The notes under the pieces: model-generated
What the model saw: only the letters and a program-made list of their open reading frames with translations
Databases searched by the model: none
Told to the model about the DNA's origin: nothing
In this document: piece after piece, positions 1 to 6,281 of the stretch
Layout: every line of letters begins with the position of its first letter
Numbering within the stretch: the stretch's first letter is position 1
Made by a program: the position numbers and the translations under genes
Virus record (IMG/VR): IMGVR_UViG_2675903559_000013
Location: 1-6,281 of that record
Reading direction: 5' to 3' (one strand)
Length of the DNA: 6,281 nt
DNA from: a virus
Lineage: Duplodnaviria > Heunggongvirae > Uroviricota > Caudoviricetes

Positions 1-43
1 ACGGAACGGTATCTGATGGCCACGGGATTGGTGCACCGACTGG
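1..43. repeat. Near-identical 43-bp junction repeat, copy A (encodes [14 protein letters not shown])
   Basis: acggaacggtatctgatggccacgggattggtgcaccgactgg differs from 3941-3983 at one position. Weaker similarity continues to about 61 / 4001 (PPAEFYPVG vs LPPESYPVG). Confidence 0.75.
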
Positions 44-1825
44 ATAAAACTCTGCAGGAGGATGAGCCGAGGTGTAAAGCTGCGCCCACGGCGACCAGTT
101 TGCGTCGGTCGTATCCCGTCGTGAACGAATAAATGCCGGAGCATGAGCACCGCTTGTACCACTCCAGCCGATGAGTAACTCACCTTCGCCAACGGCTGTC
201 ATCCCTTTCAGGTGAATGATATTTCCATACGCTGTTGGATATCCGTTGTTATACACCTCGTATAACTCAAGACCTGCTGCCCCCTGCGTATTGTCTGTCA
301 GCGCGGCTACCCGACCTTTTGAAGCCAGATTAACTGATGATACTGCTGTTCCACCTGACGGTAGCGCCCCGATCTCTGATGCCGTTGGCTTATTTCTGGA
401 GTTATAGTCCCTTCGCCAGCCAGGTGAATAATCTGTTCCGTGATTAATATAGGTAAACTGGGCGTTGGTTGTTCCGCCACCGCTGGATGTGGTCGGAGTG
501 GTAATGCGGATCGTCATCGCTGACTTTATCCCCATTACTTCAATGACAGCTCCGGCGAGATGAATATTACCGCAGCCAGTATCAGTAATGATTTTATTAT
601 TGCCATAAGACCAGGAACCCTTGCACATCCAGTATGGATGGTTAAATGCTCCCTGAGAATCCAGCCACTCGATAAACTGTGCAGTCGTCCAGTTTCCTGT
701 TGTTGTGCTTACTGACCCACCGAAGGCACGGCAGGCACCAATATTTTTCGTAAAGGTGTCTTTGCCAGGGATATCCGCACCGTTCTGATCTTTCTGCAGA
801 CGTTTCTCAGCATTGTCATTGGCTGCTTTTACTGCCTTTGGCGTTGCCGCCAGCGTTTCAGACGTGCTGTTGGTCGCGCTGCTTAGCTGGATTATCCCTT
901 TCTGTGCTGTCGTTGCATCCTGTGCGGTGTATTTCCCGTTAGCCAGGTCATACGCGGCCTTAACGGCTTTTGGTGTTGCCGCCAGTGACTCGGAAGTGCT
1001 GTTAGTCGCACTACTGAGCTGTACTATCCCCTTTTTCGTCGTGCTCGCATCCTCAAGCGCCACGGCGGATGCAATATCCTCTGCCCGTTTTGCCGCTGTC
1101 TCAGCGCGCGTTGCTGCAGATTCCGCCGTACTTTTGCTCTGAGCTGCTGCCGTCGCACTACCAGCAGCCTCTGTCGCCTTCGTGGATGCCGTCGTGGCGC
1201 TGCCCTTCGCTGCTGACGCCTGTCTGGTCGCCTCATCTTTTGAAGCAGACGCCGATGATGCCGATGACGCCGCCGAACTGGCGGACGATGCGGCAGCCGT
1301 TTTTGAGGATTCTGCACGGGTTTCCGACGCTTTCGCGTTCGTTTCGGATGTCTTCGCTGCGGAAGCTGACCTCGCTGCTGCCGTGGCCTGCTCAGTGGCT
1401 TCGCCAGCCTTCGTTGTGGCTGTTGAAGCAGACGATGCGGCACTTTCTGCCGATTTTCCGGCGGCGGTGGCACTGGCTGAGGCCTGCCCGGCACTTGTTG
1501 ACGCGGCACTGGCAGACGACGCAGCCGCTGTTTTTGAGCCTGCCGCAGCTGAGGCACTCTGTCCCGCTGCCGTTTCAGAAGACCTGGCGTTCGTCTCGGA
1601 CGTTTTGGCCGCCTTCGCAGAATTTGCAGCCGCCGTCGCCGAGGAAGCTGCGCTACTGGCGCTTGATGATGCGTTCGTTTCTGATGATTTCGCTGCCTCT
1701 TTTGAGGCCGCCGCATCCCGGGCTGAGGTGGCTGCTTCTGACGCCTTCGTGGTCGCGGCGGATGCAGAAGTGGCTGCTGATTGTTGTGACGCTGCCGCAT
1801 TCGTTTCTATGCAGGGGATATTGAT
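1..1825 (-). CDS. Second side tail fibre paralog (stf-like), open at its 3' end beyond the window start; no canonical start codon for its first ~254 codons, so it may be a gene fragment or recombination cassette
   Basis: Not in the ORF track because it has no stop within the window. I translated the minus frame (codons at 3k+2) codon by codon from 1825 to 2 with no stop, about 608 codons. It encodes the Ala/Ser/Thr-rich shaft repeat ([15 protein letters not shown]...), two tail-fibre repeat motifs ([26 protein letters not shown] and [26 protein letters not shown]), a distinct central domain ([49 protein letters not shown]...) and the conserved junction [20 protein letters not shown]. The first in-frame ATG/GTG/TTG from the 5' end is GTG at 1061-1063; a gene caller would probably start there. 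Confidence 0.6.
768..1807. repeat. Direct repeat copy A of the stf shaft/tail-fibre-repeat region (about 1040 bp)
   Basis: Aligns with 5167-6074 at offset 4399 below the indel and 4267 above it. Hand comparison of two 60-nt windows gave 3/60 and 5/60 mismatches. This copy carries an extra 132 bp (44 codons). Confidence 0.85.
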
Positions 1826-2401
1826 TTATGGTTGACTTGGCCACTCGATATCTGGAGATAGTGATGTATCAACACGGTTCAGCAACACCCGATACTTTTT
1901 CCAGGCTTCAAGCAACGAGGTTTCTTCCTCCGTTGCGATTTCCAGATCTGCAGCATCCTGAAGCGGCGCAATATGCTCACTGGCTACCTGCATCAGGCTG
2001 TTTTTTGTTTCTTCCGCCTCCCGGATCCGGAATAGTTTTTCTGCTTCTGCATCTTTCACCCAAGCTGTACCGTTCCACTTCTGATATTCCCCTTCCGGCG
2101 ACAACCAAGTAACATTTTCCGGTAACGGACCGAGTTCAGAAATAAATAACGCGTCCCCTGATGCCACGTCATAAACCGTTTTACCCCGATGATCTTCAAC
2201 GAGATGCCACGATGCATCATCACCGTTGAAAACAGCCACGAAGCCTGCCGGAATATCTGGCGGTGCAATATCGGTACTGTTTGCAGGTAGACCTGTATGA
2301 GGTGGAATGTATGCATCACCTTCACCAATAAATTCATTAGTTCCGGCCAGCAGATTATAAATTTTTATGGTCCGTGGTTGTTCAGTCATTCTAAAATCCA
2401 T
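1826..2401 (-). CDS. tfa: Tail fibre assembly protein (lambda Tfa-like chaperone)
   Basis: The translation from the ATG at 2399-2401 reads [58 protein letters not shown]..., near-identical over most of its length to lambda Tfa as recalled. The track begins at GTG 2407, but that GTG is part of the Shine-Dalgarno AGAGGTG (2405-2411), so the ATG three nt after it (2399-2401) is the likely start. Stop is TAA at 1826-1828. Confidence 0.9.
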
Positions 2402-2404
2402 GTT

Positions 2405-2411
2405 CACCTCT
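2405..2411 (-). promoter_or_regulatory. Shine-Dalgarno (AGAGGTG) for tfa
   Basis: The minus strand reads TAG-AGAGGTG-AAC-ATG: the macro-gene stop TAG is immediately followed by AGAGGTG, then a 3-nt spacer, then the tfa ATG. Confidence 0.6.
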
Positions 2412-3300
2412 ACTTAATATCAGAGACAGAATATTGTTTATTGAGCGTATGGGTGGGAGCACCAATAACGATGCTACTTCCGTGGCTATGTGCGCCAGAG
2501 GTGAGATTGCCTACGGGATTTTCTGGATTAAACCGGTGTGTATGCGAATCAGGGCGAGAGCGATTATTAGTCAGCACGTCATCAGCCTGATGCACATGGC
2601 TAATACAGAACTGCCCGGAACGTGAGCAATACGTCCGATAATCGCCGCATCCAATATATTTAGTATCCGCATAACGGCAAACAGAATTACCCGGACAGTA
2701 TGCATATGTGCCAAATACTGCCGACTGGCGGGAGTGTGCGTATTCCCAGTTAATTGATTCTGTTTTCTTATTAAAGTTATCCCATGCCTGCTTCATTTGC
2801 CGGGCAACGCTTTCAAACGGAACCTGACCACATCCGGCCCCCATTGCAGGGAATACCACCGTCTTTATTTTCCTGTCTGTCGTTGCGTTTTTATTGTGCT
2901 GAAAGATGGCAAGCAGAGCGGCCCAGGTTGCATTATATACAGCGTCTGTTCCGTCAATTGTCAGCGGAACACGCATTGTTGGCGCATGTACCAGCCAGGG
3001 GTGATGATTATGCCCCGTTTCAATTACAAATGCAGAACCTACAGGCTGTTCGCCTAGATATTCACGAAGAATATGATTCTGAACGCGGGACTGTAACTGA
3101 GTACCGAAGAATGCGGTAATGGCGGCATCAACGCCGCCATCCATCAGGCCGAAACTATTTGCCGCACTTACCATGCAGTCAAATTCTCTGATTGTTTCAA
3201 ATGGCTTTCCGACAATATTCACATTATCTGCGGTTGCAAATACCCGCTTAAATGCTTCAGCCATTTCTGTTACTGGTGCAGAAAGAATGAGCGTAATCAT
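2410..3300 (-). CDS. Macro-domain protein (ADP-ribose-binding/hydrolase fold) with a Cys/His-rich C-terminal extension; function unknown
   Basis: 296-aa ORF. Macro-domain signature motifs: [21 protein letters not shown] (aa 41-61; compare YmdB/MacroD D-x-I-V-N-A-A-N...G-G-G-V-D-G-A-I), [21 protein letters not shown] (aa 88-108) and [14 protein letters not shown] (aa 148-161; compare S/VAFPAISTGVYGYP). The C-terminal ~110 aa has 5 Cys (C202, C208, C218, C225, C232) plus His-rich stretches. Start ATG at 3298-3300 overlaps the stf TGA stop (ATGA), with GAGG at 3306-3309 five nt upstream. Stop is TAG at 2410-2412. Confidence 0.82.
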
Positions 3301-6281
3301 GCAAGCCTCACAATATAGTTAAATGCGATGTTTTTGACGGTGTTTTCCGCGTTACCAGCAGCGTTAACGGTGATGGTATGTCCATGTGAACCAATCGCAA
3401 CGGAGTGCGTGTGTGCACCAATACCGACAGTATGTGCGTGTGCACCTGCAGATGCTGCTGTGCCGGACAGTGAGTGGCTATGATTACCATCTGTACTGGT
3501 ATTAGCTAACCACCCCGTAGACATACCTACTGAGCCTTGTACACCCCAGGTATTTTGACCTGAGCTTGTATAACCATATTGATAAGTATCTTTAAAAACA
3601 CTGGGGTTAAATCGACGGCCATCTCTATGGCTGTGATTACCAGCTGCATTCGTGCTGCCACTTAAACTATGGGTATGCGCACCAGTGTTATTCGTGGATT
3701 TAGTGCCGTAATCAAACGACGATGTGGTTTTCGTCCCCAAATCCGTACTGGATGCGCTGGCGCTGTGGGTATGCGATTTAATGCCATCCTGTTCCTGAGA
3801 CAATACGGCACGACCACTGGCGGGCTTGCCCTTAATCGTCCAGCCACGCAAATCAGGGATCACGCCTGACGGATAAGCGGCAGCAAGTTTCGGGTAGGCA
3901 GATTTGTCAAAAGTCTGCCCCTGCATCAGGGCATAACCAGACGGAACGGTATCTGATGGCCACGGGATTGGTGCGCCGACTGGGTAGCTTTCTGGTGGAA
4001 GATTTTTCGAGGTATAAACTTCTGCCCAGTCTTCCTCAAAACCATAGCCATCTCTTGAAGAACGGTAGAACAGACCACCATTTCTGTAATGCGCCTTCAT
4101 CTGCAGGGTCCGGCAACTTCCGACTCCGGTATAGAAGTTAACCAGAATATAGCTGTCGCCAGAGCGGGTGACATTGTAAGCGCCTGATTCGGCATTCCAG
4201 GGAACGCCACCATCCGCATCGGCATATGTATCCGTTGCCCTTCTGGCAAAAGCAGCCACATGCGCGGCGGTTAAAGTAATATCTTTGGAACCATCAAACT
4301 CAACACCAGAAACCCGTCTTGGCGTTTGCAGCTTTGTTGCTGTTAATGCATTACCGTTCAGACTTGCGGACAGTTTGGTTCCAATAACCAGTTCGCCGGT
4401 TGCGTTATCAATAGCAAACGGTCTTAATGTATTCCAGCCACCATAAACATCACCTTGATTGGTAAGCAGCAGGTAAGTTTTAGCGCCATCATTACGCCAT
4501 AATGCCCCATACTCCCCACCTATCATTCGAATCTGATTACCACCACGCGCTACAATTTCGTCTGTGGCAAAAAGTTTTTTGCACGACAAGTTATCGTTAA
4601 CGATTAACGAATGAGACTCATAAAAACCACGCCCACTCTTAAAATCAAGGATAACGTCCGCCGCGATACATTCAGTCGCCGGATTTGTTGCCCCAAACTT
4701 ATAGGTCGTATCATTAACAACGAGATCAGCACCAGGTGCGGATATTGACAGGCCATCTTCGATAAACGCAAAAACAGGGAAAGCAGCGCCATCAACATAG
4801 AACACAGAGCGCAAATCATCGCCCTTATTACTCATCATTATTGAGTGGATGGCTCGTTCATTGTTTTGATATTGCCAGAACATTCCATAAGCATAACGCC
4901 CCCTGTCAGTCCAGCCACCAGGCATAACAAATCCGTTAAACTCGCAGTTATTCATCGGATCGCCTGCGGTTCGCGTTGCCGTGGTGATAATGACCCTTGA
5001 TGCCAGTTCGCTTACTGAGCCAGCAGAACGCATAACAACAACAGGGTAATATTTTCCAGATATTGCACCTGCAGGAGCGTTAACCCGCACATAACGCATA
5101 CCACGCTTATCAGCAAAGTCTGTTTTACTGACCGCGTTAATGTTGTTCAGGAAGCGTCCCTTATCGGGTATATCAGCGCCGTTCTGGTCTTTCTGCAGAC
5201 GTTTCTCTGCATTGTCATAGGCTGATTTTACTGCCTTTGGCGTTGCCGCCAGCGTTTCAGACGTACTGTTGGTCGCACTGCTGAGCTGTACTATCCCCTT
5301 TTTCGTCGTACTTGCATCCTCAAGCGCCACGGCGGATGCAATATCCTCTGCCCGTTTTGCCGCTGTCTCGGCGCGCGTTGCCGCGGATTCCGCCGTACTT
5401 TTGCTCTGTGCTGCCGCCGTCGCACTGCCAGCTGCCTCTGTCGCCTTCGTGGATGCTGTCGTGGCGCTGCCCTTCGCTGCGGACGCTTGTCTGGTCGCCT
5501 CATCTTTTGAAGCAGACGCCGATGATGCCGATGACGCCGCCGAACTGGCGGACGATGCGGCAGCCGTTTTTGAGGATTCTGCGCTGGTTTCCGACGCTTT
5601 CGCGTTCGTCTCGGATGTCTTCGCTGCGGAAGCAGACCTCGCTGCTGCGCTGGCCTGTTCAGTGGCTTCGCCAGCCTTCGTTGTGGCTGTTGAAGCAGAC
5701 GATGCGGCACTTTCTGCCGATTTTCCGGCGGCGGTGGCACTGGCTGAGGCCTGCCCGGCACTTGTTGACGCGGCACTGGCAGACGACGCAGCCGCTGTTT
5801 TTGAGCCTGCCGCAGCCGAGGCGCTCTGTTCCGCTGCCGTTTCAGAAGACCTGGCGTTTGTCTCAGACGTCTTTGCCGCCTTCGCGGAATTGCCTGCCGC
5901 CGTTGCCGAGGAAGCGGCACTACTGGCGCTTGATGATGCGTTCGTTTCTGATGATTTTGCCGCCTCTTTTGAAGCCGACGCATCCCGGGCTGAGGTGGCA
6001 GCTTCTGACGCTTTCGTGGTCGCGGTGGATGCAGAAGTGGCTGCTGATTGTTGTGACGCTGCCGCATTCGTTTCTAACGTTTTCGCCGCACCGGCACTGG
6101 TAGCCGCCGCGCTTTTTGAGGACTCTGCAGCGGCAGCACTTTTTGAGGCTTCAGTGGCCTTTGTTGATGCCGTTCCTGCGCTGGAAGACGCTGACTGAGC
6201 CGACGAAGCGGCCTGTCCGGCTGACGTGCTGGCTGCACGTGCTGAATCTGCAGCATCAGTCGCATGGGTTGCCGCCTCACG
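3297..6281 (-). CDS. stf: Side tail fibre protein (lambda Stf-like), 5'-partial; the N-terminus lies beyond the window end
   Basis: The track ORF 3297..5330 ends ...[47 protein letters not shown], matching the lambda Stf C-terminus as recalled. It also carries [26 protein letters not shown] (tail-fibre repeat motif) and [35 protein letters not shown] translated the same frame upstream of the track's GTG (5328-5330) codon by codon to 6281 and found no stop and no ATG/GTG/TTG; it encodes Ala/Ser/Thr-rich ...AAKTSETNA... repeats typical of the Stf shaft. The track start at 5330 is therefore only the first in-frame start codon, not the real start. Stop is TGA at 3297-3299. Confidence 0.92.
3306..3311 (-). 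promoter_or_regulatory. Shine-Dalgarno (GTGAGG) for the macro-domain gene, embedded in the last codons of stf
   Basis: The minus strand reads AACTATATTGTGAGGCTTGC-ATG-A: GAGG lies 5 nt upstream of the ATG, and the ATG overlaps the stf TGA stop, consistent with translational coupling. Confidence 0.55.
3941..3983. repeat. Near-identical 43-bp junction repeat, copy B, inside stf at the central-domain/C-terminal-domain boundary
   Basis: acggaacggtatctgatggccacgggattggtgcgccgactgg; direct orientation relative to 1-43. Confidence 0.75.
5167..6074. repeat. Direct repeat copy B of the stf shaft/tail-fibre-repeat region (about 908 bp)
   Basis: Same alignment as above. Homology ends at ...cgtttcta (1807 / 6074), after which copy B continues as stf coding sequence whereas copy A abuts the tfa stop 18 nt later. 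Confidence 0.85.

Follow-up and report, generated by a model that had tools for sequence, protein, structure and literature searches.

A start-less tail-fibre frame behind tfa, probably the displaced part of a lambdoid stf gene split by an N15-like cassette

Organization of the locus

We analyzed a 6,281-nucleotide stretch of a tailed virus (Caudoviricetes), namely positions 1 to 6,281 of IMG/VR virus record IMGVR_UViG_2675903559_000013, hereafter called the window. All genes of the window lie on the minus strand, in the order of the tail-fibre gene stf, an open reading frame (ORF) with a macro domain, and the tail-fibre assembly gene tfa (Table 1). Behind tfa follows a second tail-fibre frame, which has no start codon and is in frame with the tfa stop codon. 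The original prediction, made from the letters of the window alone, had drawn attention to this frame and offered three explanations: a silent cassette used after recombination with the upstream stf, a tandem-duplication junction, or, less likely, expression by stop-codon readthrough or internal initiation. Here, we discuss the origin of the start-less frame and the likelihood of its expression.

Translation of the minus strand from 1828 to 2 confirmed that the frame stays open for 608 codons past the tfa TAA (1826–1828), with no stop between 2 and 1825. Such openness is far beyond chance, at approximately (61/64)^608, and the frame reflects a recently intact gene. Sharing a frame with the tfa TAA has a prior of 1 in 3 and is incidental. 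The first in-frame ATG, GTG, or TTG is, as had been predicted, a GTG at codon 255, followed by ATG at 626–628, 533–535, and 515–517; with no such codon among the first 254, the frame lacks a start codon and ribosome-binding site of its own. The expressed upstream copy is likewise devoid of in-frame starts from 6281 down to the GTG homologous to that at codon 255, indicating that it is the Ala/Ser/Thr repeat as such that lacks them. The predicted absence of the N-terminal Stf domain was also borne out: Pfam found Phage_fiber_2 (E = 1e-37) as the only domain of the second frame, and PF08400, the tail-attachment domain expected of a functional Stf, was missing. Alignment with the intact 1,008-aa Stf of locus L024 began at codon 207, so that the first 206 codons are missing, and the frame matched positions 205–496 of the phrog_3299 profile. 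Its fibre repeats and receptor-binding region run uninterrupted by stops or frameshifts and are 98.7–99.4% identical, ungapped, to intact stf genes. The earlier placement of the start of stf homology at 18 nt after the stop holds at the protein level (ETNAAAS), but DNA homology begins already at 1809, 16 nt after the stop.

The second frame and the expressed stf share an 863-nt direct repeat, the two copies of which are 93.5% identical (56 mismatches); the longest stretch of exact identity is 158 nt (1392–1549 = 5659–5816). Their central domains differ, that of the expressed copy being termed A-type and that of the second frame B-type. The units are therefore not near-identical, as those of a simple in-situ tandem duplication would be when formed, and the arrangement is not a fresh event of that kind. 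The number of inverted repeats of at least 20 nt in the window was 0.

Table 1. Features of the window and parentage of its segments. R, resident-type allele (reference L036); D, donor-type allele (reference L016).
Feature	Position	Strand	Details
Expressed side tail-fibre gene stf	3297–6281	-	5' end beyond 6281; TGA 3299–3297; 994 open codons in the window
Macro-domain ORF, 296 aa	2410–3300	-	PF01661, E = 8.6e-19; ATG overlaps the stf stop (ATGA); within the D block
tfa, tail-fibre assembly protein, 191 aa from ATG	1826–2401	-	PF02413, E = 1e-43; TAA 1828–1826; alternative GTG at 2407; within the D block
Spacer after the tfa stop, 16 nt	1810–1825	-	1810–1820 is the tfa-proximal palindrome arm, TGCAGGGGATA on the + strand
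Non-homologous joint	1809–1810	.	Terminator palindrome centre joined to the second base of stf codon 207
D-derived initial stf part of the second frame, ~52 codons	1653–1809	-	0/156 mismatches to L016 over 1653–1808
R-derived stf remainder	1–1652	-	Ala/Ser/Thr repeats, two Phage_fiber_2 repeats, B-type central domain; runs off the window at 1
First canonical in-frame start, GTG, codon 255	1061–1063	-	Counterpart in the expressed copy, 5328–5330
Direct repeat, downstream copy, 863 nt	947–1809	.	Partner 5214–6076; spacing 4,267 nt
Direct repeat, upstream copy, 863 nt	5214–6076	.	Partner 947–1809
Contiguous D-derived block, 4,267 nt	1653–5919	-	Length equals the repeat period; flanked by two R halves
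Segment assigned R	5920–6281		R, 0/362 mismatches; D, 19
Segment assigned D	5214–5919		R, 55 mismatches; D, 1
Segment assigned D	1810–5213		R not aligned full-length; D, 12 mismatches
Segment assigned D	1653–1808		R, 7 mismatches; D, 0/156 (L016 and 12 other D-like loci)
Segment assigned R	947–1652		R, 4 mismatches; D, 48
Segment assigned R	1–946		R, 0 mismatches; D not aligned full-length

Parentage of the segments

Each segment of the window was compared with two reference alleles and with all fetched loci that matched it full-length, and both comparisons gave the same pattern. The R reference, L036, is an IMG/VR locus with the lambdoid order J-lom-stf-tfa and an intact stf, and the D reference, L016, is an N15-like telomere phage-plasmid. 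In L036, stf continues and is directly followed by a 193-aa ORF in the place where the window tfa matches at 92%. The R-derived part of the second frame (1–1652) differed from L036 at 4 of 1652 positions and was 98.7% identical, ungapped, to intact stf in the best-matching E. coli complete genomes, with 639 records covering 80% of it or more. Indels and stops were absent from positions 1–1809, where only five bases were private in comparison with the first 27 related loci, so that the event looks recent.

Between the two R halves lies one contiguous D-derived block. Each of its boundaries falls within 38 nt (1653–1690 and 5920–5957), and the two intervals occupy homologous positions. When the block was re-ordered as 1810–5919 followed by 1653–1809, it matched one contiguous segment of L016 with 14 mismatches in 4267 nt (99.67%); this donor segment begins at stf codon 207 and ends midway through the tfa/sopB terminator palindrome, and the block in the window is its circular permutation. 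In-silico excision of the block left 2,014 nt that differed from the intact L036 stf at 4 positions and held 0 stops. Over 1810–6281 as a whole, ungapped identity to the stf-macro-tfa region of N15-like elements was 99.3% (L016) and 98.7% (pAH01-1, that is L001, NZ_CP055252.1). The expressed stf is accordingly a hybrid, with the R allele from 6281 to 5920 and the D allele from 5919 downward, the latter contributing the A-type central domain, the Collar domain, and an HxH-rich tip (Pfam: Gp34_trimer, Collar, and Phage_fiber). A model of simple insertion with a purely resident downstream copy failed, as seven sites at 1691–1759 are donor-type.

The stf alleles are highly mosaic in the repeat region; L024, for example, mixes R-like and D-like sites, and a test of gene conversion between the two copies was uninformative with L024 as the reference until it was replaced by L036.

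The joint between tfa and stf

In L001, the convergent tfa and sopB are separated by a perfect palindrome of 11 + 1 + 11 nt, TATCCCCTGCA-T-TGCAGGGGATA, at 5989–6011, which was scored as a bidirectional intrinsic terminator with a 10-bp stem. The full palindrome was kept, invariant, in 30 of 30 copies among the fetched loci. In the window, only the tfa-proximal arm is present, without the central base or the second arm: homology to N15-like elements on the tfa side ends at 1810, and stf-internal sequence follows at 1809 without microhomology (22-mer across the joint, ATTCGTTTCTATGCAGGGGATA). Terminator and structure scans detected neither a terminator-like hairpin nor a significant fold at this joint (fold z-score −0.6). 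The position of the joint exactly at the palindrome centre suggests breakage associated with the hairpin.

Base 1809, the last stf base at the joint, is an A, which is the rare R-type allele and is also present at the homologous position 6076 of the expressed copy. On the coding strand, this allele changes codon 207 from TCA (Ser) to TTA (Leu). In IMG/VR, the A was present in 11 stretches, compared with at least 120 for the common G, and an exact 73-mer around 6076 had no match in the 1,951 matching E. coli complete-genome records; it was a search on this rare allele that yielded L036 as the better R reference. An origin of the A from a variant palindrome centre was ruled out, since the centre is T in all 30 copies.

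The joint appears to be unique in the collections searched. Positions 1650–1990 were compared by megablast with 5,426 E. coli complete genomes and with PLSDB, and exact 35-mers and 22-mers were scanned in species-representative genomes (genome_contigs, 185k), IMG/VR (viral_contigs), and JGI metagenomes (metagenome_contigs). None of the E. coli complete genomes or PLSDB plasmids spanned 1809/1810, and no exact k-mer across the joint occurred in the 185k species representatives, IMG/VR, or the JGI metagenomes. Among 90 related loci that hold both the tfa 3' end and stf repeats, 0 carried the repeats 3' of tfa in the same orientation. In one candidate (H51, E. coli FG31-1), stf and tfa pieces stand close together, but this is a deleted prophage remnant in normal gene order. 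The comparison with homologous prophages that the original prediction had proposed identified database proxies for both parental alleles; the joint itself occurred in none of the collections searched.

Origin of the start-less frame

Based on these results, we propose, with a probability of about 0.7, that the start-less frame is the displaced 3' part of a resident lambdoid stf gene, which was split by the insertion of a 4,267-bp cassette from an N15-like element. The insert is contiguous and circularly permuted, it is flanked by the halves of one gene, the switch points on both sides are at identical, homologous positions, and excision restores the intact gene. These features are those of a single reciprocal, Campbell-type crossover. 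Experiments have shown that lambda and resident prophages exchange stf and tfa by homologous recombination that tolerates divergence (PMC3945230).

The resident stf would have carried the B-type receptor-binding region, and the cassette would have entered it by one reciprocal homologous crossover within the Ala/Ser/Thr repeats. Its content would comprise stf from codon 207 with the A-type central domain and C-terminal tip, the macro gene, tfa, and half of the tfa/sopB terminator. In this scheme, the cassette would act as a 4,267-bp circle closed by the non-homologous joint; such a circle is the by-product expected if an N15-like genome loses the stretch between stf codon 207 and the terminator hairpin by illegitimate deletion, for which breakage of the hairpin loop is a plausible cause. 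An equivalent route would be a double-strand break in the resident stf repaired by copying D, with a template switch from the hairpin to codon 207 before capture of the second end. By either route, the product would read, in order, the R 5' part joined to the D cassette as a hybrid stf, the macro gene, tfa, the joint, 52 D codons, and the rest of the resident stf.

Several points weigh against this reading. The parental alleles are database proxies rather than the true parents, and neither a free circle nor a donor carrying the joint was found. The flanks lie outside the window, and the host element could be either a chromosomal prophage or a plasmid. In addition, all 13 D-like loci that are otherwise perfect over 1653–1808 have G at the position of 1809, so that a pure Campbell model needs a D parent with the A variant, a filler base, or later conversion. 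The donor may have gained the A by an earlier exchange with a co-resident prophage; alternatively, it may be a filler base or the result of conversion from the upstream copy. Finally, four D-like sites (1430, 1433, 1442, and 1508) stand inside the otherwise R-like copy. They fall within or beside the 158-nt run shared exactly by the two repeats, and may represent a short gene-conversion tract or a difference from the true parent.

The original suggestion of a duplication junction was right in that the end of tfa is joined to stf-internal sequence, but the cassette is foreign and the copies are heteroallelic, and the arrangement is not a simple in-situ duplication. A tandem duplication could still have come first, if an illegitimate exchange between sisters linked the terminator centre to stf codon 207 and so duplicated the stf(3')-macro-tfa unit, with most of the downstream unit later replaced by homologous recombination with a B-type stf; as a variant, one illegitimate join from the D palindrome centre to R codon 207 and one homologous crossover could have been followed by a gene-conversion patch. 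Such a history accounts for the rare A at both 6076 and 1809 and for the 50 nt next to the joint that are identical in both copies, and it fits the highly mosaic nature of stf alleles such as L024. We nonetheless consider it unlikely, because it requires more events and leaves unexplained both the coincidence of the R-to-D switch of the upstream copy and the D-to-R switch of the downstream copy in the same homologous 38-nt interval and the fact that the two R parts, put together, differ from one known allele at only 4 of 2,014 positions. An assembly or library chimera of a separate N15-like plasmid and a lambdoid prophage in one strain seems more improbable still, although the parents are typical of two different elements, the joint is unique, and the window opens right at a 34-nt repeat of 3941–3974, which suggests a contig ending at repeats. 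A graph assembler could not have produced this joint, which lacks a shared k-mer, and a chimera would not give a block length equal to the repeat period, reciprocal switch points, or clean restoration.

Expression and possible reversion

The terminator hairpin was destroyed by the joint, and late transcripts probably continue into the second frame. Translation is another matter. The frame shared with tfa and the 608 codons free of stops would at first sight allow a Tfa-fibre fusion by readthrough of the tfa TAA, reinitiation, or internal initiation at the GTG of codon 255, as the original prediction had considered; we give this almost no credence. UAA is the least leaky stop codon in E. coli, and here its context is UAA-A, with AUC and AUA as the only near-cognate codons nearby and no stimulatory structure downstream. 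The sole Shine-Dalgarno-like motif, GAGG, is poorly spaced at 14 nt from the GTG, and the same GTG is found inside the expressed copy. Readthrough would be expected to show a leaky stop context or stimulatory structure conserved among relatives, but the arrangement occurs in no relative; the frame relation is 1 in 3 by default, and the junction is a unique accident. Any product would also lack the N-terminal domain for tail attachment. Since the frame has no start codon, ribosome-binding site, or tail-attachment domain, we infer that it is not expressed as a fibre and most likely does nothing as it stands.

The idea of a silent cassette is mechanically feasible, in that an intact gene is regained in silico when the sequence between the direct repeats is deleted, but we saw no sign of an evolved system. 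Recombination anywhere in the 863-nt repeats would remove the cassette and give back the B-type stf; in R-like loci, the B-type stf has its own tfa behind it. An evolved host-range switch, in which a B-type cassette is kept for receptor change by recombination in the manner of pilS or vls, or of Mu and P1, could draw on these repeats, with exact runs of up to 158 nt permitting RecA- or Red-type deletion, and on a cassette free of decay. The lack of decay is, however, equally explained by recency, and the switch would be one-way. Silent cassettes of the pilS or vls kind recur across strains and lineages, whereas this one was not seen again: the joint is absent from the E. coli, PLSDB, species-representative, IMG/VR, and JGI collections, and the 90 related loci include no case of stf repeats downstream of tfa. 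The window also lacks inverted repeats, a Din-type crossover site, and an invertase. Given the absence of the joint from the collections searched, nothing suggests an evolved switch, and we regard one as very improbable.

A looser possibility, to which we would give slim odds, is a switch independent of any dedicated recombinase, in which heteroallelic tandem cassettes regularly pop out the 4,267-bp A-type unit, the progeny carry the B-type fibre with its own tfa, and the circle re-inserts elsewhere. If true, entry of the excised circle into other stf genes would make tail-fibre cassettes mobile by Campbell-type integration.

A switch driven by an invertase of the Gin, Cin, Pin, or Min type was rejected in view of the direct orientation, the lack of inverted repeats, and the lack of a crossover core: AAACCNNGGTTT, which we take to be that core, did not occur in the window even with 1 mismatch, and no serine invertase ORF was present within it. 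Among the relatives, chromosomal lambdoid prophages and phage Kati (L022, L023, L025, and L026) carry a Pin-like serine recombinase gene after stf(-macro)-tfa, and STEC434 has an additional tfa fragment further on; these arrangements may be remnants of invertible fibre segments that are missing from the N15-like versions.

Comparison with known systems

We conclude that the window is a new instance of known processes, namely exchange of tail-fibre modules and duplication with a novel joint, and that the start-less frame is a one-off recombination scar rather than a new mode of gene expression. Tandem duplications with a novel joint have reportedly been described in phage lambda and bacteria by Emmons and colleagues and by Anderson and Roth. 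Like these, the window has a direct repeat unit bounded by one non-homologous joint, and it would share their instability, as one unit is lost when the copies recombine by homology; cos packaging should accommodate the additional 4.3 kb. It differs in that the copies are heteroallelic (93.5%) and the unit comes from another element than its flanks, which makes it a duplicative foreign insertion. With Campbell integration, the window shares an insert that is a circularly permuted, contiguous donor segment, the same homologous crossover interval on both sides, a split target, and restoring excision. The insertion here, however, involved no site-specific integrase or att site, and the proposed circle would be replication-incompetent and was not observed.

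The alternative cassettes of Mu G/Gin, P1 C/Cin, e14 P/Pin, and p15B Min are also start-less C-terminal parts near tfa-like genes that are expressed only after rearrangement. Those cassettes are inverted, are bounded by 26-bp crossover sites, and are switched reversibly by serine invertases, whereas the cassette in the window is direct. The recombination described by De Paepe et al. 2014 (PMC3945230) concerned the same genes, with crossover within diverged stf producing a hybrid fibre with a new receptor-binding part, but those events were two-crossover replacements that left no remnant. In the window, one side is non-homologous and the old 3' half is kept. As for N15-like phage-plasmids, 1810–5919 is 99.7% identical to L016, including the 16 nt after tfa up to the terminator centre; in all N15-like loci examined, however, what lies behind tfa is the full palindrome and then convergent sopB, in place of the stf-internal sequence seen in the window.

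The value of the locus is that the product is legible, as both parental alleles, a 38-nt crossover interval, and a base-exact non-homologous joint can be read directly. It offers a natural example in which a phage-plasmid and a lambdoid prophage would have swapped receptor-binding modules by a combination of homologous and illegitimate recombination, with a duplicated intermediate that keeps the old specificity in reserve. For annotation, frames of this kind are displaced gene halves and are better called partial genes or pseudogenes than readthrough extensions of tfa.

Neighbouring genes and minor observations

The place of the macro gene, behind stf and ahead of tfa, is conserved in N15-like phage-plasmids as well as in some chromosomal lambdoid prophages. 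Its macro domain comprises residues 44–169 of the 296-aa protein, and the C-terminal ~100 aa are rich in Cys and His, with HxH-like motifs and a faint resemblance to a fibre tip. PHROG lists the function as unknown, Protein Data Bank (PDB) matches were limited to remote macro domains, and PADLOC gave no match for the protein. It could be virion-associated or act as an anti-defence ADP-ribose hydrolase. Exact-protein look-ups with tfa and macro returned only N15-like contigs, on which the identical tfa protein was always followed by convergent sopB.

Several public contigs of ~91–95 kb (L003–L011), which is about twice the size of an N15-like genome, carry sopA-sopB-tfa-macro-stf twice, in mirror image (in L003, for example, 13655–20361 mirrors 6034–12740). 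Most simply, these are linear hairpin-telomere plasmids assembled through the telomere into an inverted dimer.

Long ORFs also occur in other frames and on the opposite strand across the Ala/Ser/Thr-repeat DNA, on both strands at 813–1835 and 5269–6280 (such as 1024–1800 on the minus strand and 1069–1824, 1182–1835, and 5269–6198 on the plus strand). These off-frame ORFs are mirrored from one repeat copy to the other and seem to be artefacts of composition rather than genes.

A further resemblance links 1–88 with 3941–4028, of which the first 34 nt are identical. The start of the window is the point where the B-type and A-type central domains rejoin the shared C-terminal Collar/HxH region, and its position at a repeat suggests a contig or window boundary there. 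The C-terminus, macro gene, and tfa that go with the A-type gene also stand behind the B-type domain in L009 and L011, indicating that the central domain is an exchangeable module with conserved flanks for recombination on both sides.

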